NCBI GenBank assembly: GCA_050013755.1
Contig: JBEKER010000003.1
Location: forward strand, 14,404-78,403
Length of the DNA: 64,000 nt
Direction of reading: 5' to 3'
Source of the DNA: Halobacteriota archaeon
GTDB taxonomy: Archaea > Halobacteriota > Bog-38 > Methanoflorentales > Methanoflorentaceae
The notes beneath the pieces were generated by a model, which was not told the DNA's origin, ran no database searches, and saw only the letters and a program-made list of their open reading frames with translations. Both the position numbers and the translations under genes were made by a program. Positions within the stretch are counted from its first letter, which is position 1. Every line of letters starts with the position of its first letter. Positions 6,395 to 48,928 of the stretch are shown piece after piece.

Positions 6395-6522
6395 GTGCCC
6401 GGGAAACGGAGCTGATCTGGTTGCTTTGGCACATCAGCCTCGCGAATCGCGTTAGATATCGTTAAAGCGTTTGGGATTCATGCAAGTAGGTACGACACTG
6501 GCCAACACGGAGGGGTTCACTA

Positions 6523-6816
6523 ATTAAAACACAGGTTATTGCACTGACGTCTCGGCAGTTCAAATTACTGCAACGATCAACCTTTTCAAAGTGGCAGGCA
6601 CGCGACGAAGGACGCACCACGAGTATAAAGGAGCTGCTTGCAAAGTATTCAGCGTTCGTTATCCGAAGCGACGGTACCCTACTCGGCGTTGCCACTGACT
6701 CAATAGGCCGATCGAAGCGGCACGTACTGGATGCGCACTTTGTCGACGAGAAGGAGTTTAAAGCGCTACAGTTCCAGTTTGCAAGCGTTGAAGAGGAGAA
6801 TATTGAGGCCCATTGA
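6523..6816 (+). CDS. Hypothetical protein, probable ATT start (not in supplied ORF track)
   Basis: Stop-free frame 6490-6816 has no ATG/GTG/TTG; GGAGG lies 9 nt before ATT 6523; product MKTQVIALTSRQFKLLQRSTF...EENIEAH (97 aa); antisense shadow ORF 6462-6821. Confidence 0.55.
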   Translation: MKTQVIALTSRQFKLLQRSTFSKWQARDEGRTTSIKELLAKYSAFVIRSDGTLLGVATDSIGRSKRHVLDAHFVDEKEFKALQFQFASVEEENIEAH

Positions 6817-6934
6817 CACACCCTAGATATCGCGTTCGCTACGTGTCGGAACTGAAAGACAAGTTGCGGTTCGCTCCACTATCCAAGGCGTCGTGGCGGC
6901 TCTTCACCTGTGCCTATTAGGATACGTCGTGAAC

Positions 6935-7276
6935 TTACCAAATCGAGCATCCTACCCCAGCCGCCTGCGTGTCTTCCACGCGCAATCCCAGTCGTTTAGC
7001 GCGCGCGAGTATTGAATTGGTCCAGAGTCCGAAACTCTGATCGAGTATCACACTGTACCCTCCTTCGTAACCGTGCAACGATCCGTCTTCATACCACGCG
7101 ATATAGTCAAATGCGTCCAGCGCAGGGCTCACTCGTTCGCTGACCCAGCTATCGTAGTCCTTTCCTGTTTCATCTTTCCACTCGAGAAACGTCGTGCCAT
7201 ACAAGTGCCAGCCTGCAACGTCAGCGCGTGTGAGCTCCAGGAAAGACTTTGCGCCGATGATTCGAATGTAACGCAC
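6935..7276 (-). CDS. Hypothetical protein (113 aa)
   Basis: Aromatic/acidic-rich globular ORF; no recognised motif. Confidence 0.55.
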   Translation of the reverse strand: MRYIRIIGAKSFLELTRADVAGWHLYGTTFLEWKDETGKDYDSWVSERVSPALDAFDYIAWYEDGSLHGYEGGYSVILDQSFGLWTNSILARAKRLGLRVEDTQAAGVGCSIW

Positions 7277-7746
7277 GATACTTTCCGCCTTGGTGCGCGG
7301 ATCGCGTGACCTGCAAAATCGTCAGATTGGCACGCTTATGGACCTACCGCGCTACAATATTCGTTACGTACATTACGCCAAGCAGCATTAATATTGTCTC
7401 CGACCGTGCAAATTCACAAAAAGCCTACGCCACCTGTGTCTAGCGCATAGACAAGCAGAGTTGTTTGAGCGACTACATTTGACTCAAGCTTGCCATTCCG
7501 CCACACATTTGTGGCGGTGCAAACGACATCACTTTAAACGGAAGCCCGCTTACTCTAGTCTGACCTATTGCAAGCCGCGGCGCACGCTCGGAAACATGTT
7601 GCGAGCACTATTTAAATCACTAGTCCCAATAACTCATGCGCTTACCATTTTGGGAAGAGCGATCGAACTACCACAGTCGATCTTCAGCGCGAACCCATCC
7701 CAGGCGAGAATGCGCCAACTCTCTCTGCTACTAACAAACGTCTCGA

Positions 7747-8808
7747 GTGTGTCCAGTGCTGCAAGATAAGTCAAATGAAATCAGACGTAATGTGAGAGTC
7801 AGACCAAGAATCGTCCTCGTCTGCTCGCTCGTTTTAATACTTCTAGTCTCGATGCTCTTTACGGGCGCAGGCAGTGGAGCGACGGGTTCTGCGCAAACGG
7901 CTAAGTATGTGGTATTTAGAGAGGATGACGTCGCGCCTAATGCCGACTTCGCCGAGCTTCAGGCTGTCAACCAAGTGCACATCGACAAGAATGTGCCGGT
8001 GACGCTGGGCATCATCCCGCATCCGTACCCTACGCCTTCGGGCAATCAGCTGATTGAAGTAAGCCAAACGTTTCTCGATTACATGCGATCGCTCACTTCA
8101 AACCATCTTTTTCAATTCGCACAGCACGGCTATACGCACCTAGATACCGGACCGTCACCGCAGGGGCCCAGTGAATTTTATGGGAGGCCGTATGCCGCTC
8201 AATACAACGCAATCAAGCAGGGGCGCGACGACATCACCCAGGCGTTCGGGGTCACGCCCACTTCGTTTCTCCCTCCGTTTGACAAGAGCGACAACAACAC
8301 ACTAAAGGCGGCACAAGCGCTGGGGTTTACGGAATATAGCACTGCCTTTGCAGATGTCAACATGAATCAGGGATACAAAGAGGGCATTAAAGTTGACACG
8401 ATCTCGATTGAGCTCGGTAACAATAGCCTTCAGTCGCTCGAGAACGCAACCGAGCAGTGGCTTAACAATCCTAATAGCATCAATACCTTCATTGTGTTGT
8501 ATCACCCCTCCGATTTCAAGGGAGCCGATGGCACCGTCAATGCCACGGAATTGAAGCTACTGGGAGATTACATCGATTACTTGCAGGGGGCCGGACGTGT
8601 GCAGTTCACAACGCTCGACCGTTCGGTGACCACGACAGGAAATGCCGCCGTTGCTTCATCGAGCAGCAATGGGACAACGGCTGTGGGAGCAACAGACGCA
8701 ACAAACGGGGTGGCGGACGTCCCGGTTCTTGGAGCGATTCTCGCTTTTTCGCTCGCCGCCATATTCACGATTCGACTACGTAAGAACAAAAACAGCCGTA
8801 AGAGGTGA
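7747..8808 (+). CDS. Secreted DUF2334 / polysaccharide deacetylase-like protein with C-terminal membrane anchor (start uncertain)
   Basis: Signal-like N-terminus; VFREDDV, TLGIIP, FAQHGYTH, SFLPPFD (NodB-like motifs); Ser/Thr linker, TM helix and basic tail. Confidence 0.8.
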   Translation: MCPVLQDKSNEIRRNVRVRPRIVLVCSLVLILLVSMLFTGAGSGATGSAQTAKYVVFREDDVAPNADFAELQAVNQVHIDKNVPVTLGIIPHPYPTPSGNQLIEVSQTFLDYMRSLTSNHLFQFAQHGYTHLDTGPSPQGPSEFYGRPYAAQYNAIKQGRDDITQAFGVTPTSFLPPFDKSDNNTLKAAQALGFTEYSTAFADVNMNQGYKEGIKVDTISIELGNNSLQSLENATEQWLNNPNSINTFIVLYHPSDFKGADGTVNATELKLLGDYIDYLQGAGRVQFTTLDRSVTTTGNAAVASSSSNGTTAVGATDATNGVADVPVLGAILAFSLAAIFTIRLRKNKNSRKR

Positions 8809-8929
8809 GTGCGGGGCCAATACCGTTTTGACGTGGGACGGTGCCTCTCCTGTAACTTGATTCCTCAAAGAAAATGAACGGTCACGTAACCAGCACCGGC
8901 TGACATGGCTGATGGCTAAAGCTTGAATC

Positions 8930-10606
8930 TCAACGAATCTTCTTCGCAAGACCCTCGGCCAGCCGCTGCAACGCAGGCGAGCTATCGTGAGGATCAAGCT
9001 GAACTTCAATAATCGTAAACCCCTCGGTGTAGGCCCGCGCCGCGTCGAGCGCGTGGTCAAGCTCATCCTCCGTCGTCGCCACGGTACCCTTCCCCCCACC
9101 AACGATCTCCGGGAATCGACTGTACTGCCACACCTGCAGGTCGTTAAAGGGCCCGTCTTGGATTGGCCGTTCGGTCGCATACCCATAATTGTTGAGCACA
9201 ACGATGATTGGATTCAGGCCGAGCCGTGCGACGGTCGAAACCTCGATGCCGGTCATTTGGAATGCCCCGTCACCGACGAGCACTAACGGACGAAGATTGG
9301 GATTCGCGAGTTGTGCTCCGATGCTCGCCGGCACCGCAAACCCGAGCGAGAGGTAATACCCGGGCGACAGGAATTCAGTTCTGCGGTGGGTGATGAGATC
9401 AAGCCCGCCGAAGAGCGCATCGCCAACGTCGGCGATGACCACGGTGTTGTCCTCGAGCGCCCAGTTAAGCCGTTCAAACAGCCTCTTGACGGTAATCTTC
9501 TCTCCTCTTTTCGTTACGAATGGTACGATAGGCCGCGGGTGTGGAAAGTCGCGGGGGATACGCGGCGTGATGGGGGCGGTGAGCAAGCCTTCGAGGAAGT
9601 CGTTTAGACCGACGCGCGCGTAGGTGCGATACCGAATCGAACATTGCTCGCTCGTGACGTAAATTGCGTTTTCCTGGTCGATATGCGCGGTATACTGTCC
9701 GAGGTTAACGTCCGTCATAAAGGCACCGAGGAGGATCAGGCAATCACTTGACTCGACATAGTCGCGGACGGACGCAAAGCCCATCGCCCCTTCGTAGATG
9801 CCCATGTACAGGGGATGATACTCGTCGACAACTGATTTACCCAGAATTGTCGCAGCGACAGGGATCTGCGCTTTATCAATTAAGGCGAGAAGCTTGTCCT
9901 GCAGTCCGAACCGGTGCAGCTCGACATCGGCAATTACGACGGGTTGCTGAGACTCGTTGATCATCATCACCGCGTCGTCAAGAGCGGCCTGCAAAGTGTT
10001 AGGATCGCTCGTATCTTCTGCTCGCGGTACCGAAGCCTGATGTGGCGGCTTCACGCGGGCGAACGTAATATCGCGCGGGAGCTCAATGTATACCGGCCGC
10101 TTAATGCGGACTGCTTCGGATAACACGCGGTCAATCTCTTGGCACGCAGTGTGCGGATCATCTAAAACCGCAGACGCGACCGTCACTTCCTCAAAGATCT
10201 TCTTTTGCGTGTTGAAGGTTCGCACTTTATGGTGGAGGAGGGGGTTCCCTATCCTTTCTTTGATTCCCGGAGCTCCGGCGATGACTATCAGCGGAGATTT
10301 TTCCGCATATGCCTGCGCTGTGGCATTGACGACCTTCAGGCCGCCGACGGAGTAAGTGACACACACAGCGCCTATTCCCCGTATACGTGCGTAGGCATCA
10401 GCGGCGTAGCCCGCGTTGAGTTCGTCGCACGTCGTAACAAGGTTGAGCGCGCTATCGCTGAGCTGCTTGAAAAAGCCGAGCACGTAATCCCCTGGCACTC
10501 CGAAGACGTGTGAAAGGCCTAATAATCGAAGCCGCTCAATAAGGTACGCGCCAACGTTCTCGGCACGATGAGACGTTCCGGATGTCGAAGCATCATCAGT
10601 TTCCGT
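8930..10606 (-). CDS. Thiamine diphosphate-dependent alpha-keto acid decarboxylase (pyruvate/indolepyruvate decarboxylase family); probable ACG start
   Basis: VGAYLIERL..LG..HVFGVPGDY, CDELNAGYAADAYAR, LHH, GDGAFQMTG.E...NNYGY (ThDP motif). The conserved N-terminus lies upstream of the GTG used in the ORF track. Confidence 0.9.
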   Translation of the reverse strand, partial: TETDDASTSGTSHRAENVGAYLIERLRLLGLSHVFGVPGDYVLGFFKQLSDSALNLVTTCDELNAGYAADAYARIRGIGAVCVTYSVGGLKVVNATAQAYAEKSPLIVIAGAPGIKERIGNPLLHHKVRTFNTQKKIFEEVTVASAVLDDPHTACQEIDRVLSEAVRIKRPVYIELPRDITFARVKPPHQASVPRAEDTSDPNTLQAALDDAVMMINESQQPVVIADVELHRFGLQDKLLALIDKAQIPVAATILGKSVVDEYHPLYMGIYEGAMGFASVRDYVESSDCLILLGAFMTDVNLGQYTAHIDQENAIYVTSEQCSIRYRTYARVGLNDFLEGLLTAPITPRIPRDFPHPRPIVPFVTKRGEKITVKRLFERLNWALEDNTVVIADVGDALFGGLDLITHRRTEFLSPGYYLSLGFAVPASIGAQLANPNLRPLVLVGDGAFQMTGIEVSTVARLGLNPIIVVLNNYGYATERPIQDGPFNDLQVWQYSRFPEIVGGGKGTVATTEDELDHALDAARAYTEGFTIIEVQLDPHDSSPALQRLAEGLAKKIR

Positions 10607-11089
10607 TTGGTTCCCCTCTTTTACTTAGCCAAACAGCATTCTTCTTTGCTGAAGCGGTGGTTGGTTTGCAGATGAGAAGTCCTTGAAGGTTCAGCAAGCA
10701 TCAATCGTTCTAGCGCACTATTCAGCCATATACCTGTGGCCTTTGTTCAACATCCGTCAGTCGGTCAATGCGTTTTTCGCCTGGTAAGCATCACAGTCGA
10801 GAGCGTTCCCATGGGACAACGACCACGGGACCCGTCTCATCGCTCTCAATATTAGCAAACTCGGACATCGCGACGCTAGCAGATCCGCTTGACACGCCGC
10901 GGGCTAATAGGAGGTCCGGTCCTACCGACTCCTTCTCAGCGGTTGCGGCTTTTCAAACAACCCGCCCCTGCAGCACGCAATGATTTATCATATCTAACCG
11001 GAATAGTGGGTGAGTGGCGCGACTCGCGCCCTATGAGTGTCAAAGCACGCGCAGCACGGAACGTCGTGGCTGTGTGCTGGAGAACTCCT

Positions 11090-12394
11090 GTGGAACCATA
11101 CGCCGCTATCGCCCTGGTGACCTTTCTAGTAACGTATGGAGCGTTGGCCACAGAAAAAATCAACAGAACGGTCGTCGTAGGCGCAGGGAGCCTGGTGCTG
11201 CTCATCACGGGCGTCCTCACCCTCGCTGAGGCCATTAATTATGTCAGCTGGGAGACCATCGGCCTGTTGTTTGGGATGTTCATCATCGTCGTGGTGCTAT
11301 CAGATGCGGGGTTCTTCTCATACGTGGCATTCATCCTTGCAAAGAGGCTGAATTACAACCCTCGCACCATGCTGATCGTGTTCCCCCTCTTGGCAGGGCT
11401 GCTGGCCTCGTTCGTGAATAGCATTACAGTCATGCTCTTTTTTGCGGCGATTACGATCGAGATCGCGCGGCTCGTGAAGATCGACCCGGTGCCCCTCGTC
11501 GTCGCGGAGGTCGTCGTTGCCAACATCGGGGGGGCCTCAACCCTCATCGGCGGCCCACCCAACGTCATACTCGGGACCCAGCTGGGCTTTGGCTTTAACG
11601 AGTTTCTGAGGAATAACGCCCCCATCGCGCTTGCTGCCGCCCTTTTAGCAGTAGGGGTGCTCTATCTTACGCAGCGGAGGGCGCTGACGCCTTTCGCGAA
11701 GGTTGACACGCGTGCGCTCTCGAGAATCGCTCCTGAGAGCGCCATCATCAGCAAACGGATGTTCCGTCTCGCCCTCGCCGCCCTCATCGCTGCAGTGGTA
11801 CTCCTCGTCAGCGGGGGTTATCTCGAGGCGGCATTCGGCATCCCGCTGAATACCGCCCTCGCCGCCCTCATTCCCGCCTTTGTCTTGCTCCTTGTCGGCA
11901 GAGGAGGTATCGAGGACACTCTCAAGAAGGTCGATTACGAACTGCTGCTGTTCTTTATCGGTCTCTTTGTGTTAGTTGGCGGACTTGAAAAGACCGGGCT
12001 CCTGGGCGTGTTTGCAACCGGCTTAGCAGGCGCGTCTATGGGGAACAACACCGTGCTGCTCTCGCTGCTGCTTTTCGGGTCGGCCTTCATAAGCGGGCTG
12101 GTCAACACCGTCCCCTTCGCCGTGATGATGAGCTACGTTATCCGAGATCTGTCGCTCATTCCGTCAGTTCTCGCCACGGCCCTGATGGTCTGGGCGGTAT
12201 CGCTGGGCGCCAACATCGGGGGCAATCTCACGCCCATCGGCGCCTCGTCGAACGTTGTCGCGTACAGCTCACTGGAGACGCACGGGGTGCGCATGGGATG
12301 GGTGCGATGGATAAAAATAGCGGTCCCGCCGACGGTGGCGGCGCTCATACTGTGTGATCTCCTGCTCTACGTCAAATATATGGGATTCTTCTGA
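11090..12394 (+). CDS. ArsB/NhaD-family ion transporter (IT superfamily)
   Basis: About 12 TM; WETIGLLFGM, ANIGGASTLIGGPPNVI, GANIGGNLTPIGASSNVV; GTG 11090 with SD GGAGA. Confidence 0.85.
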   Translation: MEPYAAIALVTFLVTYGALATEKINRTVVVGAGSLVLLITGVLTLAEAINYVSWETIGLLFGMFIIVVVLSDAGFFSYVAFILAKRLNYNPRTMLIVFPLLAGLLASFVNSITVMLFFAAITIEIARLVKIDPVPLVVAEVVVANIGGASTLIGGPPNVILGTQLGFGFNEFLRNNAPIALAAALLAVGVLYLTQRRALTPFAKVDTRALSRIAPESAIISKRMFRLALAALIAAVVLLVSGGYLEAAFGIPLNTALAALIPAFVLLLVGRGGIEDTLKKVDYELLLFFIGLFVLVGGLEKTGLLGVFATGLAGASMGNNTVLLSLLLFGSAFISGLVNTVPFAVMMSYVIRDLSLIPSVLATALMVWAVSLGANIGGNLTPIGASSNVVAYSSLETHGVRMGWVRWIKIAVPPTVAALILCDLLLYVKYMGFF

Positions 12395-12410
12395 ATCGAT
12401 GGTGGTAACC

Positions 12411-12890
12411 ATGAAAGTCCTCGTCTGTTTTGATGGATCGCCCTCAGTTACGGAGGGCGTGAAATGTGCCGTAAACGCGCTCCGGCGCGATATCGACTAC
12501 ACGCTGCTGTACGTGCTCACTGAGCGCGGCATCTACGAGAGCTACAAGCACTTATTTCGGGAAGACTTGGAACGAATCGAAGCGCTCGTCGGAGACGTTG
12601 ACTCAGAGAAAAAAACCGCGAGACGGCTCTTTCTCGACCCTCTCTGCGCGCACATGCGAGAACAGGGTCTCGCCGTCCGCGCGGTTGTGAGGGAAGGGCA
12701 CGCTGCCGAAGAGATTCTGGACGAGGTGCGTGAAGGACACTACGATATCGTCATGCTCGGAGCTGGACACTCTTTCTCAGCGTCGAGACTGCTCGTGGGT
12801 AGCACGGTGACCGAGGTAATGCGGAACGCCCGCACGTGCGTCATGGTGATGCACCCTGCGCGTATGCACATCACAGAACAACACCGTTAA
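12411..12890 (+). CDS. Universal stress protein (single USP domain)
   Basis: KVLVCFDGS, REGHAAEEIL, YDIVMLGA, LLVGSTVTEV; directly follows the permease. Confidence 0.9.
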   Translation: MKVLVCFDGSPSVTEGVKCAVNALRRDIDYTLLYVLTERGIYESYKHLFREDLERIEALVGDVDSEKKTARRLFLDPLCAHMREQGLAVRAVVREGHAAEEILDEVREGHYDIVMLGAGHSFSASRLLVGSTVTEVMRNARTCVMVMHPARMHITEQHR

Positions 12891-13229
12891 GCCACGGGCC
12901 GACGCCACTGCGTGATAACCCGATAGATCCCGATCAAGGGGCCCAGAACGAGCCCGTAAGTCAAAGCAAATCGAAAAATAAATGGTCTAATTACCGTTGA
13001 AAGCCGTCAAAGCCAATGTTAACGCAAAGATACAATAGCTAACAATTTGAAACTCAATCTCAGTCGTCACCGCTTTAGATTACCTCTGCGCCGCACGCTT
13101 CTGGCGCCTTGAGCCAGAATATATACCCTCTCGAGTACCTGTTTGCAGGGCAAAAGCCGTCTTGTAGCGCGTTTATTGCAGATTCAAAGCTGATGGCCTC
13201 GCGACGTCCTTCGTCGCACGAAGACGTGC

Positions 13230-13454
13230 TTAAACGCTGGCATCTCTCCTAGTCTGTTTCTCAAGTTGCTTTACTATCCAGAGGTATTTGCACTCCAAAT
13301 CTTTGTTTTCTGTCTTTAATTTGTCGTTCTCCTTATTCAGGCGTTCAACTTCGGCGCGCACGCGGGTAAACGCTTCCGAATGCTTCAGCTGTAGCCTTTC
13401 GTTCTTAGCTTTCAAGAGCTCGTTTTCGACCGTAAGTAGAGACTCCTTGAGCAT
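13230..13454 (-). CDS. Small coiled-coil hypothetical protein
   Basis: 74 aa, heptad-like Leu/Glu/Lys pattern. Confidence 0.5.
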   Translation of the reverse strand: MLKESLLTVENELLKAKNERLQLKHSEAFTRVRAEVERLNKENDKLKTENKDLECKYLWIVKQLEKQTRRDASV

Positions 13455-13578
13455 ATCTGGTCATAGCCTATAATGGCACAAATAGAGCGCGCCGTAAAAA
13501 AGCATAGCACGTTCGTTTAGCTGCGATGCAGCCTCAAGTCATCCGAAGCGTGTTGTCTGGAGGGAGTATGCGGTTTAT

Positions 13579-13806
13579 TTAGCGTCTGTGAGCTGGCACT
13601 TGAAAACGCAACGTGACGCTTGCGCGTCGTCGTCGGACGAGGGCGCAGTTTCGCGTATGCTCGAACTCCAAACGCTTTGTTGTGAGGGGTTCAACCGCTC
13701 GTGCGTCTTCTAGCTCTCTGAGCGTCGCTGTGGCGCTCTATCGAATCTCCGCGCTCTTATCACGCAACGCGATGTTCAACTCATCGACAATTGTTCCGGC
13801 TGCCAT
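13579..13806 (-). pseudogene. HEAT/PBS-lyase repeat gene remnant
   Basis: MAAGTIVDELNIALRDKSAEIR*SATATLRELEDARAVEPL; in-frame TAG at 13738-13740; resembles repeats of the intact 37525-38226 protein. Confidence 0.55.
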
Positions 13807-13836
13807 TGTGCTCGCATCGTTTGCAAACTCAAGGCA

Positions 13837-15222
13837 TTATCGCCGTCTCTGCCGCACTCTAAAATGTTTGGCAACGAAGCCCCGTATTTTAGTAATGACC
13901 GCTACGCCGACCCCCGTCACACTCCCCGCTCTTGGCTGCGCCGTCGGCTCACACTCCGCAACCTCCTTACCGATCTGAACCTGAATAGACCGGGACTTCT
14001 CAGTCGCAAGCACCTGTGATGGATAGATGCTTCGGTGACCGGACATGACGTAGCTGACAACGCACGCTACTGCGGCGTACGGCGCGACTGCCGGCCCAAA
14101 GAGCTCAATTGAAATAATACTTGCAGCGATGGGGGTGTTGGTGGCTCCCGCAAGAACGGCTACGAGGCCAATAGCCGCAAACGTCGCCGAGTTCAAGCCA
14201 AATACTTGCGCGAAAAGAGCGCCGGCCGTGGAACCAATAAAGAAGATAGGGGTGATGATACCGCCGCTTCCCCCAAAGCCCAACGTTATGCTCGTAAACA
14301 CGATTTTTAAGGGGAAGGCGTACCAGACAGCCTGCTGCCCCTGCAGCGTGGCCTGAGTCGTGGCCAATCCGAGCCCAAGGTACTGCGTCGAGAATGCCAG
14401 AGTCAACAGTATGAGCGCTGCCCCGCCAATGATGCCCTTGGCGGGCGCCCACAGGGGCAGACGTTCTGCTGCCTTTTTGAAGAGGTTGAAGAGCTCAATG
14501 AGAAGGAGCGCGACAATCCCAAAGAAGATGCCTGCAACAATCACTTGCACCAAGAAGAACCCGCTGAAGACGGGCACGAACTTGAGGGGGCTGTAGAAAT
14601 AGGTGATGCCAAGGGCAGCCGACACCTGGTAGCTGACGATTCCTGCGATGAACGCCGGAAGAAGTACGTCGTACATGAGGCCCCCTACAAAGAGGACTTC
14701 GACCCCGAAGATAGCACCCCCTATGGGCGTACCAAAAACGGAGGCAAATCCGGCGCTGACCCCACAGATGACTAATTTCCGACGGTCACGGTCGTCGAAC
14801 TTCAGGAGATCGCTAAACAGTGAAGAGAGCCCCGCCCCTATCTGGGCGCCAGGTTCTTCCTTGCCTGCCGAGCCGCCTGACGCGATAGTGATGAGCGTGG
14901 CTGCGAGCCTTACCAAAACCGTTGACGGCTTTATTTTGCCGGATCGTTTGTGAAGGGCATCAATAATCATCGCCGTGCCGTGCCCTTCATCGCCTGGGGC
15001 AAGGTATTTCATCATGGCGCCGCTGACAAGGAGCGCTAGGGGAAGGAGGAGAAAGTAGTAGGGAAACTGGCCGGTCACGGCAATGCTGTAGTCTAACGCC
15101 TTTAGGAAAACGGCTACAGCTAAGCCGACAGCGACTCCAACAAGCGTGCCTAGCACGCACCACTTGCAGACGCTGATGAATAAGACGATTTGCCTAGCGA
15201 GGATACTAGACGCATTCGACAC
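13837..15222 (-). CDS. CLC chloride channel/transporter family protein (no CBS domains)
   Basis: GHGT, GGSAGKEEP, FGTPIGGAIFGVE, GGSGGIITP, TNTPIAASII. Confidence 0.9.
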   Translation of the reverse strand: MSNASSILARQIVLFISVCKWCVLGTLVGVAVGLAVAVFLKALDYSIAVTGQFPYYFLLLPLALLVSGAMMKYLAPGDEGHGTAMIIDALHKRSGKIKPSTVLVRLAATLITIASGGSAGKEEPGAQIGAGLSSLFSDLLKFDDRDRRKLVICGVSAGFASVFGTPIGGAIFGVEVLFVGGLMYDVLLPAFIAGIVSYQVSAALGITYFYSPLKFVPVFSGFFLVQVIVAGIFFGIVALLLIELFNLFKKAAERLPLWAPAKGIIGGAALILLTLAFSTQYLGLGLATTQATLQGQQAVWYAFPLKIVFTSITLGFGGSGGIITPIFFIGSTAGALFAQVFGLNSATFAAIGLVAVLAGATNTPIAASIISIELFGPAVAPYAAVACVVSYVMSGHRSIYPSQVLATEKSRSIQVQIGKEVAECEPTAQPRAGSVTGVGVAVITKIRGFVAKHFRVRQRRR

Positions 15223-15334
15223 ACGTAAAAAAGATCGAGCGAGGCTTTAACGGTTGCCCTTCGATCGCGCCCGGAAGTCGACTTTGAGCGCATGGCGACT
15301 GGAGCCACTGCGAGACGCTTTTTTTGTCAGTGTT

Positions 15335-22380: not shown

Positions 22381-22393
22381 CAATGCGGCATCA

Positions 22394-37404: not shown

Positions 37405-37524
37405 AACTAATGGCTTAGTTTCCGTTAACCACGCCGATGCATTACGGTGTGGCGTTGAGCAACTTGGCGAATCACTTCCTGAGCGCGCTGCGTTGCGCGA
37501 TCCTAGACCGACATTTCCCAACGA

Positions 37525-38226: not shown

Positions 38227-38916
38227 TTTTAAGCCTCCTCTTTTTGCACAGCCGAGGTCACGTCGGCGAGGGCATTGCCTACACGAGTGCCGTACTCAGT
38301 TAGTGTCCTGTTAAGTCCTATATAGCTGCTACGCCATCTCTGAGTGCTTCGACGCGGAGCCACGGGAACTTAAAGGGCCGCAGCCTTGCGCGCGAATCGC
38401 TGTCATGCTGCTTCGCTGAGCACGCGCGCGTGTTTTTCCCCTGCACCAAAACAATTGGTTATCGGCGCAGGCTAGCGCCAGTAATGCCCTCGAGGGGCGT
38501 CCATCGAAGGCTTCGTTTGCTACCTTGCGGCGCATCGTAACATCAGAGGTTTCTGAACGTATGTTCTGCGCAACCTCGGAGACGCCAAACCCCACTAGCC
38601 AAACATCAACATTTTGCTCGTAAGGTTTGTCGAAACATTGCGACTAGCCAACGCAACGTGAGGAGGTACACTATACTTAACACTCAAAGCTGTGGTTCAA
38701 GCGTGGTCATTTATACGATATCTGGTGACCGCGGGTTACCAGAAGATATATCACTAGAAGCAATAATCTAAGCTTTAAAATATGTGGATGTTAGAATATA
38801 CGCATGCTCAACGTTCTGCTACGTGACTAGTGAGTCATTTTACCGTTGATTGTGAAGATAAACGGTAGGATGCTCAGCTAGACCAGCAGTGGGCGCACGC
38901 GAAAGAGGCAAATCCG

Positions 38917-40313: not shown

Positions 40314-40333
40314 CATAACTACGGAAGGTTACG

Positions 40334-41266: not shown

Positions 41267-41357
41267 ATGACTTCACAAAAGAGACTTAGTATAGGTCAGC
41301 CGGTGGACGGATCAACGAAGAGAATGTGTTTTTTTGAGCGTGACGCACGCGGGCGAC

Positions 41358-42002
41358 TCAAACGTCGTATTGAACGAGCTTGTTCTTATGGAGGTACTTG
41401 AGGAGGATATCTAAGATCTCATCGCACACGTCCTCTTCATCAGCTATTTTTTCAACGACGATATAGTTCCCAGAGTCCTCTCGTGCCATCTCGAGATACC
41501 GCCCCCGTACGTTGACAAGGGCAGTTTCGTTCTCAAAAGTAGTCAACCCATTATCGCGTTTTTCAATAAGGGTCATGGCGATATCTGCAGGCCAGTTGAT
41601 GATGAAACTAATGTCCGGCTCCGGTGCGAATTGTCGATTCATCTCGAGTATCTCTTGCCACGGTCTACTGTCTGACTGATATGCTGCGGTAGACAAGAAG
41701 TATCTGTCCATTACGACGATCTGCTTTTCCAGTAGCGCGGGCATTATGTGCGTCTCCACATCGTGCCTTCGATCGGCCAGAAAAAGGTCAACTAAGTCGC
41801 TGGGTTTTGTGGGGGAGCCGTGCTCAAGCGCCCGACGTATCTGTTGTGCCTCTTGGGTTTCATTAGTCGGCTCGAAAAAGCGGACGGCGTTGAGCCCAAG
41901 GGCTGTTAATCTCTCTACTAGTCTGATGGACTGCGTTGTTTTTCCCACGCCGTCTATTCCCTCGATTGCCACCAGAATTCCGCGGTTCAGGCAGTGCTTC
42001 AT
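41358..42002 (-). CDS. tmk: Thymidylate kinase
   Basis: IEGIDGVGKTTQ (P-loop), LFLADR, VMDRYFLST.AYQ; ATG 42002 immediately follows the aminotransferase stop. Confidence 0.92.
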   Translation of the reverse strand: MKHCLNRGILVAIEGIDGVGKTTQSIRLVERLTALGLNAVRFFEPTNETQEAQQIRRALEHGSPTKPSDLVDLFLADRRHDVETHIMPALLEKQIVVMDRYFLSTAAYQSDSRPWQEILEMNRQFAPEPDISFIINWPADIAMTLIEKRDNGLTTFENETALVNVRGRYLEMAREDSGNYIVVEKIADEEDVCDEILDILLKYLHKNKLVQYDV

Positions 42003-42003
42003 G

Positions 42004-43110
42004 CTAAAAAATGCTCGAAAACTCGATCGCGAATCGCTCAACCTGCTCCTTAGGGATGGCAAAGCTTACACGCACATACTTGTCGACAAATCTTCGCGTG
42101 GTATACTCAGCTGCTCTAATGAAAAAACCGAGTTTCAGCATCGTGTCTGCGATGGTTTCAGGAGTCTTGCCTGTGCCTGAGATATCAATAACAAACATGC
42201 TTCCCTGTGACGGATAAACGGGGAGATACGCTCCTCGTATTTTGTCGACAACACCTTTTATGGTGGCTTGATTTGCCATGATAGTCTCAACTACCTTCGG
42301 GAGCCAATCGAGTTTGGTCTTGAGGGCTGCAATTCCGGCAATTTGACTAACAATTGAGGTACCGAGGTCATTTATCTTGTACCGGGCCATTCGCTCTATA
42401 AGCTCGTTTGTTGCGATGTGCGCCCCCAGCCGTAACCCTGCTAAACCGCAGTTTTTTGAAAAACTGTAGATGGTTATCGTTCCCTCAGGATAAAAGTCGG
42501 CGGCAAGAGTATGGAGTTTTGCCACGTCTCGGTAGGTCACGTCGTTCAACAAATAAACGCCTGCGTCTTGAGCGATTTCACAAAACGCCTTGACGTCCTT
42601 TGCCGTGTAGGTCACGCCCAGCGGGTTCAAAGGGTCAACGAGAGTCAGCATCTTAGTTCGCTTGCTCATCGCCTCATTTACCATGTCCGGCGTCAATTTA
42701 TAGCTAGTATCTGCTGAGTAGATCGGTAGGTCAAGAACTTTGGCTCCGCTTAGTTCGGCAAACTTATGAATAACGTAGTAACCTGGATCTGTCGAGATCA
42801 TGACGTCACCGGGATGCAGCAGGGTGCGTGTCACCTGGTAAAGCGACTCTGTACCGCCCTCCGTCACGTGGACTTCGTGGGGTGAGCTCAAATTCAAGTC
42901 TTGGAGTATGAGGGCCCGTAACTCCTCGAGCCCATACGGTGGCGGGTATTTGTGGTATTCCTCTTTGTCGATGGCATTAACCATGGCCCGCTTGATCGCT
43001 TGTGGGGTAGGAAAATGGTTGGTATTTTGCCCCATCCATACGACGGAATCATCGTCGTAAATGTTTTGAAAAAATCGATTTTCACTGTTGAAATCGGCCA
43101 CTTGAATCAC
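42004..43110 (-). CDS. PLP-dependent aminotransferase class I/II
   Basis: YPPPYGL.ELR, VT.GG.E, DPLNPLG, DVTYRD, YSFSKNCGLAGLRLG (PLP Lys). Confidence 0.92.
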   Translation of the reverse strand: MIQVADFNSENRFFQNIYDDDSVVWMGQNTNHFPTPQAIKRAMVNAIDKEEYHKYPPPYGLEELRALILQDLNLSSPHEVHVTEGGTESLYQVTRTLLHPGDVMISTDPGYYVIHKFAELSGAKVLDLPIYSADTSYKLTPDMVNEAMSKRTKMLTLVDPLNPLGVTYTAKDVKAFCEIAQDAGVYLLNDVTYRDVAKLHTLAADFYPEGTITIYSFSKNCGLAGLRLGAHIATNELIERMARYKINDLGTSIVSQIAGIAALKTKLDWLPKVVETIMANQATIKGVVDKIRGAYLPVYPSQGSMFVIDISGTGKTPETIADTMLKLGFFIRAAEYTTRRFVDKYVRVSFAIPKEQVERFAIEFSSIF

Positions 43111-43300
43111 ATCGCTGAATGATCGGAAAGCTACGTTTAATCGATCAGTTGCCTAGGGGCGAACGTTTACAACTGTCGTAATTGTTCACAATTTAAAAGC
43201 GTTGTGGTGGAGGAAACGACACTTACAGAAAAACGACGCGACAGCGTTTGTCTTGGTCGCCGCGAGCGTGTTCCAAGCTCAACCGCGGTTATCAAGAAGG

Positions 43301-44530
43301 TCAGAATAAGCTTTCCTTGACTGATTTTCTTGTGAATCGTGTTCCGTCTAAAGCTTCCAATCGATAATCTTCTAACAAAACCCGAAACGTTTCGTCTAGG
43401 GGAACCGAGAGAGATATTTCCTTTGTTCTGCCGTATCTGCCTTTGCTGACAACTTTTGTGCTGATTATTCCGAGCAAATCCAGCTCCATTATTAAATCGG
43501 TGATGCGCCTTTTAGTCAACACGTCGAGGTCTATCTGTCTGCAAAGTGTTTCATACACTCGGTTTACCTCACCGGTTGTTGCGCTTCGCGCTCCGTTTTG
43601 ATGAAGTGTGATTATGCTATACAGCACCAGTTTCGCTTGGGTAGGGAGCGTGCGAATCACCTCTGCGACTCTGTTGAGTTCTATTCGCATCTGAGCGGTC
43701 CGAACGTGCTCCTCCTTAACGCTGTCGGCATTCACGCGTTCAGCGAATTCTCCTGATACTCTCAGCAAATCGAGCGCACGTCTGGCATCCCCGTGCTCCT
43801 GAGCGGCCAGGGCTGCGCAGAGCGGAATGACTTCGTGGTGCAACGCGTGTTCCTTAAAGGCTAGGCGCGCTCGCTCTTCGAGGATGTCTCGCAGTTGATT
43901 GGCGTCATAAGGTGGAAATATTAGCTCCTCTTCGGCTAGTGAGCTCCTGACCCGAGGGTCAAGATATTCTGTGAACTTCAAGTCGTTGGAGATTCCAATG
44001 AGACTTACCCGGGTGTCGGTGAGCTCGAGGTTAATTCGCGACAAATTGTAAAGCACATCGTCCCCGCTTTTTCGGACCAACTTGTCAAGCTCGTCAAGAA
44101 TTATTATGACGCTCCCGCCTTGAGCGTTGAGTGCTTCAATAAACTCTGAATAGACTTGATCTGTTGGCCACCCCGTCATCGGCACATCTTTGTTGAATTG
44201 GCGAGCCAAATACGCAAGGACGCGGTACTGGGTATCGACCACTTCGCAATTTATGTATGCAACGGTACACGGAACTCCTCGCGATGCGCCAACTTCCATC
44301 AATTCTCTGCCTACATATTTAGCGCAAGCCGTTTTCCCTGTGCCGGTTTTGCCGTACACAAGAATATTCGAGGGAGTCTCCCCTCTGAGCGCGACGACTA
44401 AAATGATAGCAATCGAGTTGAGTTGATCGCGCCTATGAGGCAGATAGCTCGGCGTGTAGGATGGCCTCAACACTTCCTTATCTTTGAAAACAGGTTTGCT
44501 TTCTAAAAGGTTGTCAAAAAGTCCTTCCAA
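43301..44530 (-). CDS. cdc6: Orc1/Cdc6 replication initiator
   Basis: VL.PSYTP..LPHR, YGKTGTGKT (Walker A), IIILDELD (Walker B), HGDARRALDLLR, winged helix with GRYGRT; TTG start with SD GGAGG. Confidence 0.97.
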   Translation of the reverse strand: MEGLFDNLLESKPVFKDKEVLRPSYTPSYLPHRRDQLNSIAIILVVALRGETPSNILVYGKTGTGKTACAKYVGRELMEVGASRGVPCTVAYINCEVVDTQYRVLAYLARQFNKDVPMTGWPTDQVYSEFIEALNAQGGSVIIILDELDKLVRKSGDDVLYNLSRINLELTDTRVSLIGISNDLKFTEYLDPRVRSSLAEEELIFPPYDANQLRDILEERARLAFKEHALHHEVIPLCAALAAQEHGDARRALDLLRVSGEFAERVNADSVKEEHVRTAQMRIELNRVAEVIRTLPTQAKLVLYSIITLHQNGARSATTGEVNRVYETLCRQIDLDVLTKRRITDLIMELDLLGIISTKVVSKGRYGRTKEISLSVPLDETFRVLLEDYRLEALDGTRFTRKSVKESLF

Positions 44531-44629
44531 CTTTCTGCCTCCAATTTCAACAGAGGAAGCGAATGCTTGCTGGAGGCACTGAATTCTAGCAACGATAACT
44601 GACTACTCAGAGCCATCCGCTTAGTCCTA

Positions 44630-45115
44630 CCGTATAGTGGAAACGTGAGTTAATAAAGTTTATGATTTCTAAAGTTATATTTCCACTGCAATACAACCTA
44701 CATTTCCACAGGAAATGACGACTTCTTCCACTGCAAACCCTACTACTTGTATTCCTATTAAGCTGCTAAGTAATCGTGAGCTTATATCGATCGTTTCCTA
44801 GAGCCTTGATTCGGGTTTCATTTTGCTTCGAAACGGTATGATCCCCACCAATTTTTGACACTGTGGAAGGATTGCTTAGGACAAGACTGAAAACTCGTTC
44901 TTCTTTTTGGCATACCTTTGTTGCTTGTGGAAATGGTTCAAGACTCACCCCATGTTTTCTACTGTAGAAATAAAAAATAGAATTTTGCTTAGTAATAAAT
45001 TATAAAAAATAGCGTGTTGTAGGGGTAATAACCTATTAATATATAAATCTTTGTATAAATTTACATCAATATTTAACGTCTAAGGTTTTATGGAAGCGCA
45101 AACATGGGGGGTGTG
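44630..45115. other. Probable replication origin (oriC): ORB-like repeats and AT-rich unwinding element
   Basis: Six or more TTCCAC/GTGGAA(A) elements, an inverted pair sharing AACATGGGG, and about 20% GC (hand count) in 44971-45080; directly upstream of cdc6. Confidence 0.8.
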
Positions 45116-45149
45116 TGCAATTTATACTGTTCTGGTTGAGGGAGGTAGA

Positions 45150-46217
45150 TTAGATCGAATTATTGAAACCGGTTACCAATCCATAACACCCCGCTAACAT
45201 CATGTCACCACCTGGTGCCGCAAAATATGGACTCAGTCGAGATTTCCTCATAATCCCTCGTCGAGGTCCTATACTGGTTACCCAAAAGCTTCGCTCTCTA
45301 AAAGCTCGATCTATCTCTTGGTATCCGGTTTTGTGTATGTAACAACCGTGTCCCCCATCTTGAAAAACACGTTCATTCGTTAATTTACCATCCATAAACA
45401 GTGACAAAAAATAGTCGAGTTTTTCTGTGTTGATCAAGGACGTGTGGTGTTCAAACATGCCGATGACCCTCTTTTGATCGAGCATAGCTGCGAGAGTGTG
45501 ACCGTTTCCGACGTTTACAATGATATGAGGTTCCTGTGCATGCTTAGCCACTACATCATCACACAGCGCACCCAATATTGCGGCCGGACCGGTATCCATC
45601 ACTAAGATCCGCTGCATTTCATTCCCCTCTAACGTCCGATATACGGCCTTTAGTCGTGTCAAATAGTTGGGGATCCGGCCATCTACGTAGCAAAAACTGG
45701 TCAACCCACCACCTGCAGCGATCAGGCGCTTGAAGTGCTGAAAACGAAAAATCCTATTACTCCCGGAGCTCTCACCATGATCTTGACACGCCACTGCGCA
45801 CATTGTAGGCAGACTAACGTCGAATTGTTGAAGCGCGGACCTCAGTGCGGGAACGTCCACATCGTTCAACTCTATTCGAACACAGTCTGTTGTCGGCTGT
45901 GCCGGTGTTATCGTCACTCCCCACGATCGGACTTTATCAAGATCATCATTGAGCGTTTTTGCTGCAAGCGGCGTCGCATAAACCGAATATCCGCCCCGCA
46001 AGTGAGCTCGAACGGCTGCGCTGCTCGGCCCACCTCCCATCGTCTCGCCACACAAAAACAAGCTGCGGCCCTGTTCCGTAACAGACCTGATGCGGTTGGC
46101 GACTATTGCAGTTTGGGAAGGCATCACCATTTTTACGTTATTCTCTGTGACTAAGCTCGAGTCGTACAGGAGCATATCTTGGGTTCCTGTACCGACGTCT
46201 AATGCGATGACGCGCAT
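45150..46217 (-). CDS. DUF1786 family protein
   Basis: LDVGTGTQDMLLYD...EN..KMVMPS, GETMGGGP, CQDHG, DTGPAA..GAL.D, NVGNGHT, FEHHT, GDMMLAGC.G. Confidence 0.85.
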   Translation of the reverse strand: MRVIALDVGTGTQDMLLYDSSLVTENNVKMVMPSQTAIVANRIRSVTEQGRSLFLCGETMGGGPSSAAVRAHLRGGYSVYATPLAAKTLNDDLDKVRSWGVTITPAQPTTDCVRIELNDVDVPALRSALQQFDVSLPTMCAVACQDHGESSGSNRIFRFQHFKRLIAAGGGLTSFCYVDGRIPNYLTRLKAVYRTLEGNEMQRILVMDTGPAAILGALCDDVVAKHAQEPHIIVNVGNGHTLAAMLDQKRVIGMFEHHTSLINTEKLDYFLSLFMDGKLTNERVFQDGGHGCYIHKTGYQEIDRAFRERSFWVTSIGPRRGIMRKSRLSPYFAAPGGDMMLAGCYGLVTGFNNSI

Positions 46218-46327
46218 AACTGAAAGATTAGGCAACGCCTCTTATTATACTTATTAACGTGGCGTCTGCGTCTTGTGCAGAATCTCCCGTCAGAAATGCT
46301 ATATACGCACTAACGCAATCCAAGTAT

Positions 46328-46870
46328 ATGCGACGCCCGCGGTCACAGACTCACCATAAGGCCGCCGTGAACAAGCGCTATGAAGTTGGCATAATCTCGA
46401 TCAGCACGTCTCGATTTGCGAAATACGGCAGCGCTAAGACACCAGAAGAGGCCGAAGACGTATCCGGCCGAATCATTATCGACCTTTTAAAAAGCGCAGG
46501 CCACAAGTTTCATTCGTACGCGCTGATATCGGACGAAGCAGAGTCAATTAGCGCGTGCGTGAGGGCCCTCATCAGTAATACCGACGCGATCATCACAACG
46601 GGGGGGACCGGACTCGCCCCGCGCGACGTGACCATCGAGTCCGTTCAGCAAATGCTTCAAAAAGAAATTCCAGGTTTTGGCGAGCTATTCAGAAGCATCA
46701 GCTACGAAAAAATCGGCTCTTCCGCCATGCTCACACGAGCTACAAGCGGCATCATAGGAAACACAGCTATTTTCTGTCTTCCTGGCTCTCCAAACGCCGT
46801 GACACTCGCGATGGAAGCCCTCATCTTGCCCGAGCTCGGGCATATTTTGCTTCACGCGTCAGAGCAATAA
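46328..46870 (+). CDS. moaB: Molybdenum cofactor biosynthesis protein MoaB/MogA family (start uncertain)
   Basis: D.SG, IITTGGTGLAPRDVT.E, KEIPGFGELFR, AMLTRA..G, LPGSPNAV. Confidence 0.9.
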   Translation: MRRPRSQTHHKAAVNKRYEVGIISISTSRFAKYGSAKTPEEAEDVSGRIIIDLLKSAGHKFHSYALISDEAESISACVRALISNTDAIITTGGTGLAPRDVTIESVQQMLQKEIPGFGELFRSISYEKIGSSAMLTRATSGIIGNTAIFCLPGSPNAVTLAMEALILPELGHILLHASEQ

Positions 46871-46913
46871 CTCTTTTTTGACGAGCCGCTGATCAGCATC
46901 TTGCAAAAAAGGC

Positions 46914-47537
46914 TTATTCGAGGGTCGCGTGCTTTTTCTTCAAGTCCTCCTCACTCTTTTTTGTTATTTCCATCAGAGCGGCAATGATGCCGTCCAAAAA
47001 TACCATCGTGCTTATTTCAAACATTGTGCCGAGGGGTGCAAACGATATGTGCGAGCCGACGACTTGTCGCTCCATAAAGTCCATGCCGCTTGCTTTCGTT
47101 CGTCCCTTCACGACTACAATAGCGTCAGAAATAGTTCCAAGCGTTGAGTCCCTATTTGACGTTACGGCGGCGAGTCGTGTGCCCTTCGCTTTTGCGAGGG
47201 CGCTCATCTCATTGATTGATTTGGTCTCTCCGGAGCCCGATATAACGATAAGAAGATCATCCGTTTCAACGGCCGGGGTTACCGTCTCTCCAACCACATA
47301 AACGTTGAATCCCAAATGCATCAATCGCATGGCAAAGCCCTTAACGACGAGTCCTGATCTGCCGGCACCCATGACAAACAGGCGCTTGTGGTTCTGCTGC
47401 GCGGCTAGGATATCCGTGACAAGTGTTTTTACCTCAGAATAGTCTATTTCATCAGCTATAGCCTGCACATTCGCGGCTATAACCTTCATCGCTGATTTGA
47501 CGTAGTCTTCGGGTTGTTGGGCGATAGGGCTCTGCAT
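46914..47537 (-). CDS. hxlB: 6-phospho-3-hexuloisomerase (SIS domain)
   Basis: FVMGAGRSGLV..GFAMRLMHLG, YVVGETVTPA, ISGSGET, APLGTMFE, H..LE. Confidence 0.95.
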   Translation of the reverse strand: MQSPIAQQPEDYVKSAMKVIAANVQAIADEIDYSEVKTLVTDILAAQQNHKRLFVMGAGRSGLVVKGFAMRLMHLGFNVYVVGETVTPAVETDDLLIVISGSGETKSINEMSALAKAKGTRLAAVTSNRDSTLGTISDAIVVVKGRTKASGMDFMERQVVGSHISFAPLGTMFEISTMVFLDGIIAALMEITKKSEEDLKKKHATLE

Positions 47538-47620
47538 AGATTCGCACCAGTGACTTTATTTGCCTGCGCTATTCTTTGAGCTTTTTATGCTTAAAGGGCG
47601 TTGGAGAACTCTGCTTTGAC

Positions 47621-48685
47621 TCATCCGTTTTCCATGGACTTTGGGTGACTTGGTGACGGCTTTTCGACCTCTTCAAATGCTAGTCTGCACAAGAGGTAGG
47701 CGATTGTAGACTCAGCACCTAGGTTCTGATTAACTCCTTTTTCAAGCGAGAGACCATCAAAACAACCGCCTGTACCCTCATCATAGATGGGCAGCTTGAG
47801 CAGATTGTTGCCGGTGAACCAGCTAAAACACTTCAGCGCGTTTTGGTAGTACTGCCGCTTGCCGGTGATCCTGTAAGCGTCTAAGAATGCTTCGACAAGT
47901 GCCCCGACGTCGATAGCCTGTTCGTCGCCGAGCGCCCTATGTTTTCCGCGGACGTACCAGCCGTTGTTTCCGATGACATTTATCACACCGCTTGAGGTTA
48001 CCACTTGATCCCACAGGAACTTTAGAGTGCTTTCGCCGCAAGCAAGGAGCTGCTCATCGCCCACTGCATCGTAGGCAAGCAGCATCGCCTGGGGCAGCCG
48101 AGCGTTCGAGTACGACATGAAGTCTTCGAACCACTCCCAGTCTGGAGCTCGTGTATCCTCGTAGTTGCGCAGAATCTCTACTGCAAGCGCTCTGATTCTC
48201 TCTTTCGCGCCTTCAAATGACTCCTGTGAGCAATAGAAGCCGAGGAGGCAGTAGGCCATTCCTCGTAAGGACAATTTGCTGGTCGCGTGCATCGCTGCGC
48301 GTTTAAAAATGACATGTGCAACTTCTTGGACGCTCTTAGGGAGATGCGAAGCGCCACTCATGTATCCGCACGCCCAGAGCGTCCTGCCCAAAGCTTCATC
48401 GGAACCTACGCTGTCGAGGAAGTTCCTTTGGTAGCTCATGAAATTGCGCATCGTACCGTCGTCATTCTGCGCGTGAAAAGCAAAGGCCATATAGGTCCTT
48501 AATAAGTCGAAACTCGACTCATCTCGAAACAAACTGTAGTGCTTCGCCGTCACAAGCAACGCTCTGACGTTGTCATCAACGCAATAACCTTCAAATCTGT
48601 TCGGAATCGCGTATTTTGCGTGTTGCAGTATTCCTGTGCAATCAGAGAGTGCTTTCACGTGCCGTAACGTAACGGGAGGGAGCAG
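47621..48685 (-). CDS. Six-hairpin glycosidase-like protein, matching the C-terminal domain of fused bacterial GT4 proteins; probable CTG start
   Basis: LPPVTLRHV..LSD.TGILQHA, GYCVDDN.RAL, WFE..MSY.NARLP, GNNGWY, GGCFDGL, VNQNLGAEST; SD AAGGTGAT before CTG 48685. Confidence 0.8.
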   Translation of the reverse strand: MLPPVTLRHVKALSDCTGILQHAKYAIPNRFEGYCVDDNVRALLVTAKHYSLFRDESSFDLLRTYMAFAFHAQNDDGTMRNFMSYQRNFLDSVGSDEALGRTLWACGYMSGASHLPKSVQEVAHVIFKRAAMHATSKLSLRGMAYCLLGFYCSQESFEGAKERIRALAVEILRNYEDTRAPDWEWFEDFMSYSNARLPQAMLLAYDAVGDEQLLACGESTLKFLWDQVVTSSGVINVIGNNGWYVRGKHRALGDEQAIDVGALVEAFLDAYRITGKRQYYQNALKCFSWFTGNNLLKLPIYDEGTGGCFDGLSLEKGVNQNLGAESTIAYLLCRLAFEEVEKPSPSHPKSMENG

Positions 48686-48928
48686 CGTATCACCTTGAAG
48701 CTTTTTGTCTTCTGTTCATATATAGGCTGTTGTCCGGCGGTCATTGAAGAGAGGCCCGTTACTGCACAGGTTCGAAGACGCACGGTTGTTACGCGTTGCA
48801 CGTGCCCGTACTGACCATCCATCAAAGCAACGCATCATTGGCGCTCGGCACACACGTCAACTTTATATCCATGCTGGCGTAGTAACGTAAGGCCCTAAAC
48901 TTAGTTTTTGGAGTGATCAGCTCTAGAC

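Follow-up and report, generated by a model that had tools for sequence, protein, structure and literature searches.

The stretch of DNA analysed here (the window; 64 kb, positions 14404-78403 of contig C3) belongs to G000, a metagenome-assembled genome of an archaeal methanogen (1.41 Mb in 55 contigs, 67% complete). It holds four genes in which an ACG, a CTG or an ATT codon behind a Shine-Dalgarno (SD) motif occupies the place of the initiation codon: a thiamine diphosphate (ThDP) decarboxylase gene, a gene for a six-hairpin-like protein, a small conserved gene, and a polA-like DNA polymerase gene. An initial annotation of the window had proposed that these near-cognate codons are true starts. 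We followed up that proposal by comparison with same-genus relatives, which are denoted below by the other G-numbers. The searchable set comprised 18 genus genomes (G000 counted) and one sister-genus genome; the start columns of the four window genes were read from alignments with 11-12 same-genus genomes. Bracketed triplets [a, b, c] give codon-position entropy, which was used to locate where a coding pattern begins.

The ThDP gene lies on the minus strand at 8930-10606 (558 codons from ACG) and encodes an indolepyruvate/phenylpyruvate-decarboxylase-like ThDP enzyme with the Pfam domains TPP_enzyme_N, TPP_enzyme_M and TPP_enzyme_C; its score against NCBIfam TIGR03394, 411 bits, is under that model's cut-off. 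Orthologues are present in all 18 of the genus genomes searched. It had been pointed out that no ATG, GTG or TTG occurs in frame between the TAA at 10627-10625 and the GTG at 10498, and that the SD-like AAGAGGGG (10613-10620, minus strand) precedes the ACG at 10606-10604; both statements hold. Across a 13-genome alignment, the column of this ACG (10604-10606, minus strand) is ATG in 12 of 12 relatives, with GGAGG-like motifs ahead of it (GGAGG or GGGGG at the place of AAGAGGGG), so that the ACG marks the exact ancestral start of the gene, altered by a T-to-C change. Read from this codon, the protein is predicted to begin (M)ETDDASTSGTSHR, and its Pfam match to TPP_enzyme_N begins at residue 17. 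The open reading frame (ORF) listing gives instead a product of 522 amino acids (aa) from GTG 10498, for which an exact-protein look-up found no record. This choice of codon is relevant to one alternative explanation, namely that translation begins at canonical codons elsewhere (a downstream GTG in the ThDP and six-hairpin-like genes, an upstream TTG in polA), the near-cognate codons being incidental. GTG 10498 is indeed in frame in G000, but a start there would cut about 20 positions off TPP_enzyme_N.

A different explanation would be that these are start-less pseudogenes, or that the codons are assembly or consensus errors. The fragmentation of the G000 assembly is in keeping with such errors, and both the ACG and the polA CTG derive from an ATG that most relatives still carry. 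On the other hand, a search pattern that allowed either C or T at 10605 returned C in five of five independent metagenome contigs, all of which differ from G000 at other positions; two ACG contigs differ from G000 by 5.6% across the full ThDP gene, as much as the ATG-bearing G011 does. Because five independent contigs that are different elsewhere share the ACG, this codon is, on the sequence evidence, no assembly error. In the ACG-bearing lineages the ThDP frame is full-length, with synonymous and non-synonymous codon differences in the ratio 58-60:31 (dN/dS of about 0.17). Likewise, the polA CTG also occurs in G001 and the ATT of the small gene in three other genomes, and the frames are intact, with dN/dS values of about 0.15-0.3. 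Pseudogenes or errors therefore strike us as a very improbable explanation.

In a FastTree phylogeny of the ThDP gene, two sequences of which are partial, the ACG sequences are not monophyletic: the ATG-bearing G013 and G001 nest among them, an arrangement that suggests either repeated ATG/ACG switching or recombination. We also observed that four ACG contigs have AAGGAGGG, a better SD than that of most ATG-bearing relatives; compensation or recombination may account for it.

The six-hairpin-like, or (alpha/alpha)6-like, gene is located on the minus strand at 47621-48685 (354 codons from CTG) and has orthologues in 12 genus genomes. Its protein has no match in Pfam or NCBIfam; weak sequence matches in the PDB are to YPO2471 (7tem, 1e-10), N-acylglucosamine 2-epimerase and GH76 mannanases, and suggest a relation to (alpha/alpha)6 enzymes. 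The CTG (48683-48685, minus strand) is invariant in 13 sequences from 12 genomes, as is the GGTGAT part of the SD AAGGTGAT (48689-48696, minus strand), 3 nt before the CTG. We could reproduce the arrangement originally described, with AAGGTGAT ahead of CTG 48685-48683 and an in-frame TGA 10 codons upstream; across the genus, the sequence immediately upstream of the CTG is broken up by 1-2 nt indels and by stops in the frame (TAA in G007, where it adjoins GGT, TAA in G008, TGA in G000). Codon-position entropy shifts from [0.88, 0.64, 0.99] upstream to [0.51, 0.0, 0.72] from the CTG on, and the predicted N-terminus is (M)LPPVTLR. The canonical candidate in this case, GTG 48658, from which the ORF listing derives a product of 345 aa, is in frame in G000 but is not conserved, being CTG, ATC or CTC in relatives; past it, no canonical codon occurs in frame until about 50 codons into the gene.

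An invariant TATATATG (48717-48724, minus strand), about 35 nt upstream of the six-hairpin CTG, is probably an archaeal TATA box; this putative promoter role would imply a leader of about 10 nt that starts at the SD. The ATG within TATATATG was considered as a start or as the beginning of an upstream ORF, and rejected: its frame shifts by 0, 1 or 2 nt among genomes, a TAA comes next in two of them, and it is out of frame in 9 of 13 sequences, including G000 (G003 and G004 alone have it open and in frame). Separately, the six-hairpin-like gene of G011 (G011:C1:552626-553715) has a 1-nt insertion (GTC-G to GTCGG) that breaks the frame; a pseudogene, or else an error in the sequencing of G011, would explain this.

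The small gene (6523-6816, plus strand; 97 codons) is conserved, its function is unassigned, and it contains no canonical start anywhere in frame, which leaves the idea of a canonical start elsewhere without a codon to act on. The protein has no match in Pfam or NCBIfam; its plus-strand frame is kept in 13 of 13 genus genomes, at amino-acid identities of 72-93%. As the initial annotation had stated, the frame 6490-6816 lacks a canonical start and GGAGG (6509-6513, plus strand) sits 9 nt before ATT 6523; this frame is missing from the plus-strand ORF listing. Among relatives the SD reads GGAGG or GGGGG, with G6512-G6514 invariant, and the start codon (6523-6525, plus strand) is ATT in seven genomes (G000, G001, G002 and G011 among them) and ATC in six. 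A TAA lies one codon upstream of this position in G008 and G003. The six codons at 6523-6540 have coding-like entropy, [0.07, 0.39, 0.93], as opposed to [0.59, 1.31, 0.49] for the spacer between SD and ATT. A second ATT (6538-6540, plus strand) is ATG in eight relatives and has no SD within 20 nt; it is probably an internal Ile/Met codon, and on codon periodicity and SD placement it is a less likely start than ATT 6523. Since coding periodicity and SD placement fit at 6523, we place the start there genus-wide, with (M)KTQVIALTSR as the predicted N-terminus. Synonymous and non-synonymous differences stand at 14:14, and the frame is open in the same-clade ATT genomes G001, G002 and G011. We discarded an ORF on the opposite strand (6462-6821) as a real gene; it is a shadow of the conserved plus frame.

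The fourth gene (58820-60574, plus strand) encodes a family A DNA polymerase (polA-like, with a degenerate 3'-5' exonuclease domain; Pfam DNA_pol_A and DNA_pol_A_exo1). At its ancestral start position (58820-58822, plus strand) there is a CTG in G000 and G001 and an AGG in G011; the other 9 of 12 genus genomes have ATG. The SD AGGTGA (58810-58815, plus strand) is 4 nt before the CTG, which itself is 7 nt after the AGG of this motif. G000, G001 and G011 share an ACC-to-TCC change right after the start column, and this, together with the distribution of CTG and AGG, indicates that the ATG was lost twice in one subclade. The N-terminus predicted from the CTG is (M)SHRSVSPPYEYVATEGHLTTIIER. Between G000 and G011 there are 39 synonymous and 18 non-synonymous differences, i.e., purifying selection. 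The ORF listing begins polA at TTG 58526 (682 aa). The initial annotation had called this case ambiguous owing to an available TTG, and we agree: TTG 58781 (58781-58783, plus strand), 13 codons upstream of the CTG and preceded at 2 nt by GAGG, lies in frame in the three ATG-less genomes (G000, G001 and G011) and in no others, and in G011 the old start is an AGG, both of which would fit a canonical start elsewhere. Against this, the TTG has no usable SD, and the 13 codons from TTG to CTG lack coding periodicity across the genus ([0.33, 0.37, 0.42], as against [0.21, 0.15, 0.47] from the CTG column). Considering the four genes together, we find it unlikely that canonical codons elsewhere are the starts.

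The 150-180 nt upstream of polA (58645-58810) are very conserved DNA in the genus, with an invariant TTCTTTTGGACAAAACATACAG at about 58646-58667. Indel lengths in this stretch are not multiples of three and coding periodicity is absent, which points to a conserved leader or promoter region; it has no match in Rfam.

Spacing is a further property that these genes have in common. The initial annotation had compared SD-to-start distances of 7-9 nt with those of canonical genes, citing the starts at 2717, 28009 and 44530. These have GGAGG 7-9 nt ahead of them, and the comparison stands: across 710 first-ATG genes, the aligned spacing of SD matches of at least 5 nt peaks at 7 nt genome-wide (range 4-10), and the four near-cognate codons are located 7-9 nt after the GG core, as for canonical genes of G000. 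For the anti-SD sequence we assumed what is generally known of archaea, in combination with the motif and spacing peak observed here; the 16S 3' end gave no match in G000 or in the compared part of G011. Exact alignment with an ATG start in orthologues of the genus is seen for three of the four codons, and the remaining one does not vary within the genus; because of this, their placement behind SD motifs is, judged from the alignments, more than chance. Orthologue alignment of all four genes thus upholds the proposal that the codons occupy genuine start positions, and its corollary for automated annotation, in that gene callers would shorten three of the four products and overlook the remaining gene. 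An ATG in sister genomes, named beforehand as an observation that would speak against the proposal, was seen for the ThDP gene and for polA. It does not overturn the reading of these codons as starts, because the variants persist in independent assemblies and the genes are under purifying selection.

We extended the analysis to the whole of G000 with a simple, crude gene finder of the codon-usage type, which called 1329 genes over 79% of the genome, some antisense shadow ORFs included, and recovered all four window genes; the survey is biased to SD-led genes. Comparison on this scale used two relatives only, the complete G011 (2.0 of 2.1 Mb compared) and, in part, G008 (about 0.68 Mb). There are 971 ortholog pairs between G000 and G011, with a median amino-acid identity of 93.5%. 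A comparison of G000 with G008 (about 80% identity) that looked for similar protein sequence ahead of the first canonical start was dropped as too noisy, since conserved intergenic DNA drags BLAST alignments into leaders. Good near-cognate cases number at least 9-10 among the roughly 1329 predicted genes (about 0.7%), at least five of them outside the window. Within the 5' portions of ORFs that lack a start, 36 of 1433 near-cognate codons have an SD of 5 nt or more ahead of them, versus 253 of 10496 other codons (p=0.43); the corresponding counts are 11 versus 40 for an SD of at least 6 nt (p=0.037), and 6 versus 16 for at least 7 nt (p=0.04), which represents an odds ratio of 2-2.75 and an excess of about five genes. 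When the SD is conserved in two genomes, the figures are 13 of 862 near-cognate and 105 of 7346 other codons. The suggestion that near-cognate starts are used unusually often is therefore weakly supported: about 0.7% compares with two confirmed genes in E. coli, the only organism with which a comparison was made, but the excess is about two-fold and is confined to an SD of at least 6-7 nt.

The strongest single case, as judged by its alignment, lies outside the window. A DUF460 gene (C15:27199, plus strand; family assigned by Pfam, with an RuvC-like TIVGVDPG motif) has an ATT behind GGAGGTG. A scan of its protein against species-representative genomes yielded 19 loci, among them those of five sister-genus genomes, for which identity is about 50%. 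ATT occupies the start column in 16 of the 19 loci and ATC in 3, with ATG in 0 of 19, and G000 is likewise non-ATG; in G000 and all 19 loci the start is always 9 nt after GGAGGT(G/A). The sister-genus loci have different N-terminal residues and a different leader, with a TATA-like TTTTATAT upstream. No canonical codon lies ahead of the conserved TIVG(V/I)DPG, save that one genome has a TTG right after the ATT; the N-terminus predicted from the ATT is (M)STIKENGGNLVAPK. That so weak a start appears to have been retained for so long argues for selection for low expression.

ACG is the commonest non-canonical start type, being found in four genes (the ThDP gene and one each on contigs C5, C11 and C30 of G000). 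At C11:34795 it stands behind an 8-nt SD, GGAGGTGA, with an in-frame TGA within the SD, and the product has KKR and then a hydrophobic stretch, typical of a signal peptide. At C30:1165 (minus strand) it follows the 8-nt SD AGGTGATC, and the downstream GTG of G000 is CTC in G011. Both of these ACG codons behind their SDs, and the ATT behind GGAGGTG, are common to G000 and G011. At C5:26637 the ACG corresponds to ATG in G011; differences in the next 35 codons, counted by codon position, are [2, 0, 8], mainly in the third. In addition, an ATT at C2:37159 (ATC in G011) follows AGGAGG, and a canonical codon first comes 41 codons later. The frequency of ACG, as well as the interleaving of ATG and ACG lineages in the ThDP tree, would suit yet another explanation: the mRNA might undergo C-to-U editing of the kind known from plant organelles, which would turn ACG into AUG. 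Editing leaves the CTG and ATT/ATC cases unexplained, and we know of no C-to-U editing of mRNA in archaea; we give this idea hardly any credence.

The survey also brought up several start regions that we record as observations in their own right. In the aIF1A gene (C15, about 31593, minus strand), the SD-led start column (GAGGTG, 7 nt) is CTG in G000 and TTG in G011, and G000 has another in-frame TTG 7 codons upstream of the CTG. A weak start on the gene of a start-selection factor recalls E. coli infC, which is autoregulated by IF3. An IscS-like cysteine desulfurase gene (C4:24834, plus strand) has a perfect 10-nt SD, AGGAGGTGAT, and then ttCTCGTAGCAAAAGAAATCGTG; there is no canonical or near-cognate codon at 5-9 nt from the SD, and a GTG does not occur until 24 nt away. 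Finally, at C36:243 (plus strand) and on C18 (minus strand, 0-based 24887 on the reverse strand), G000 has GTG where G011 has GTA, with a canonical codon common to both genomes 7-9 codons downstream; GTA at these SD-led columns would mean that start codons are eroding in G011 too.

The initial annotation had offered relaxed initiator selection as one possible cause. In this scenario, altered aIF1, aIF2 or initiator tRNA would have loosened start selection lineage-wide, and near-cognate codons would be regular starts of many genes. The number of good cases, in a genome that is 67% complete and with four of them inside one 64-kb window, might be read in this way, as might the ortholog pairs whose two members each have an SD of 7 nt or more, in which 3 non-canonical starts are set against 35 canonical ones. 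The two parts of the initiation machinery that were compared, aIF1 and the initiator tRNA, give no sign of it. aIF1 (PF01253) was found in 16 of 18 genus genomes with normal scores, as in other genera; when aligned with M. jannaschii aIF1 (PDB: 4MO0), the G011 and G008 proteins have an intact CxxCGLPxxxCxC zinc knuckle and an intact loop-1 KRRYGK, the matching loop-1 residues of which in P. abyssi aIF1 (R31, Y32 and K34) are needed for 30S and mRNA binding. The initiator tRNA of G011 is also canonical, with A1:U72 and three G-C pairs in the anticodon stem. The G000 assembly contains no aIF1 copy and no initiator tRNA, elongator-type tRNA-Met alone being present, because that assembly is incomplete. 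Nor is there near-cognate enrichment at an SD of at least 5 nt, and in 247 ortholog pairs of G000 and G011 the shared start column is canonical, behind an SD of 5 nt or longer that both genomes keep, versus a handful of non-canonical ones. Relaxed selection is thus not supported by the genus relatives, and we think it improbable; the phenomenon reaches roughly 0.5-1% of genes, and there is no general loosening of start-codon choice.

From these comparisons, we consider it likely that ACG, CUG and AUU/AUC are used behind SD motifs as genuine near-cognate initiation codons in this methanogen; both initiation at these codons and a down-tuning effect are what we infer from sequence. Several observations weigh against this conclusion. 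The SD of the ThDP gene is weak in G000 (GAGG). In polA there is the in-frame upstream TTG, the AGG of G011 is a very poor initiator, and the start in the CTG/AGG subclade may have moved. In the six-hairpin-like gene, an ATG located 12 codons ahead of the CTG is open and in frame in G003 and G004. Near-cognates are only weakly in excess across the genome, with no excess at an SD of at least 5 nt and p of about 0.04 at 6-7 nt or more. The status of aIF1 and initiator tRNA is known from relatives, given the incompleteness of G000.

How would these starts compare with known systems? E. coli has two confirmed near-cognate-start genes, and its near-cognates initiate at 0.1-3% of AUG. As with the AUU of E. 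coli infC and pcnB, an SD-led near-cognate codon is here the only start of a conserved gene, is kept in relatives, and is thought to set low or regulated expression. The differences are that archaea use eukaryote-type factors (aIF1, aIF1A and aIF2) rather than IF3; that the autoregulatory circuit is one described for infC, the present cases being known from sequence; and that ACG and CUG are also used, and AUU alternates freely with AUC. NCBI translation table 11 includes CTG, ATT, ATC and ATA among its alternative starts, so that the occasional use of CTG, ATT and ATC as starts in prokaryotes is already recognised, whereas ACG is not listed. A review of archaeal translation gives AUG, GUG and UUG alone as start codons. 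Ribosome profiling of Haloferax volcanii placed about 30% of putative alternative initiation sites at near-cognate codons, which its authors set aside as possible false positives (PMC7261190). The likeness is that archaeal ribosomes were seen there at near-cognate codons; unlike those alternative or novel sites, the near-cognate codons described here would be the sole starts of conserved main ORFs, and they come from comparative genomics, not profiling. In eukaryotes, near-cognate initiation at CUG and ACG is policed by eIF1 (PMC4705826; PMC6237735). The core is homologous (e/aIF1, e/aIF1A, e/aIF2 and Met-tRNAi) and the preferred codons, CUG, ACG and AUU, are the same, but the start is positioned here by the SD and not by scanning and Kozak context.

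We envisage that the SD places the small ribosomal subunit such that the near-cognate codon, about 7-9 nt downstream, would land in the P site. There it would presumably be read, inefficiently, by ordinary Met-tRNAi, giving full-length protein at a lower rate; the initiation machinery itself would be standard. Two classes of gene can be proposed. In the first, weak starts would be conserved by selection: the six-hairpin CTG and the small-gene ATT/ATC across the genus, and the DUF460 ATT/ATC across two genera. These starts probably hold expression low, and for these conserved cases the deliberate down-tuning suggested in the initial annotation is plausible. The second class would consist of recent, tolerated substitutions of ATG, i.e., to ACG in the ThDP gene (in a shallow lineage group) and to CTG or AGG in polA (in one subclade); these are likely low-expression accessory genes.

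The phenomenon is of the known near-cognate kind and is rare here; it establishes no new principle. What the comparative-genomic evidence adds is a methanogen lineage that keeps CUG, ACG and AUU/AUC as sole starts of conserved genes, one of them across two genera. This has a bearing on how the group's many assemblies from peat and permafrost are annotated: the ThDP enzyme would be entered at 522 aa rather than 558, and the small gene would go uncalled. We also put forward, tentatively and as something rather less than an even prospect, the broader idea that an extended SD (6-8 bp), by keeping the 30S subunit at its site, makes CUG, ACG and AUU/AUC regular, selectable main-ORF starts in both genera of these peat methanogens, and perhaps in many archaea, with start-codon identity acting as an evolvable expression dial. 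If this were true, the setting of the dial would have stayed fixed for tens of millions of years in DUF460 (never AUG), would flip between AUG and ACG among close strains in the ThDP gene, and would reach even aIF1A (UUG/CUG). The strictly non-ATG DUF460 start and the ATG/ACG switching provide testable material on the trade-off between SD and start-codon strength, on an archaeal ribosome with eukaryote-like factors.

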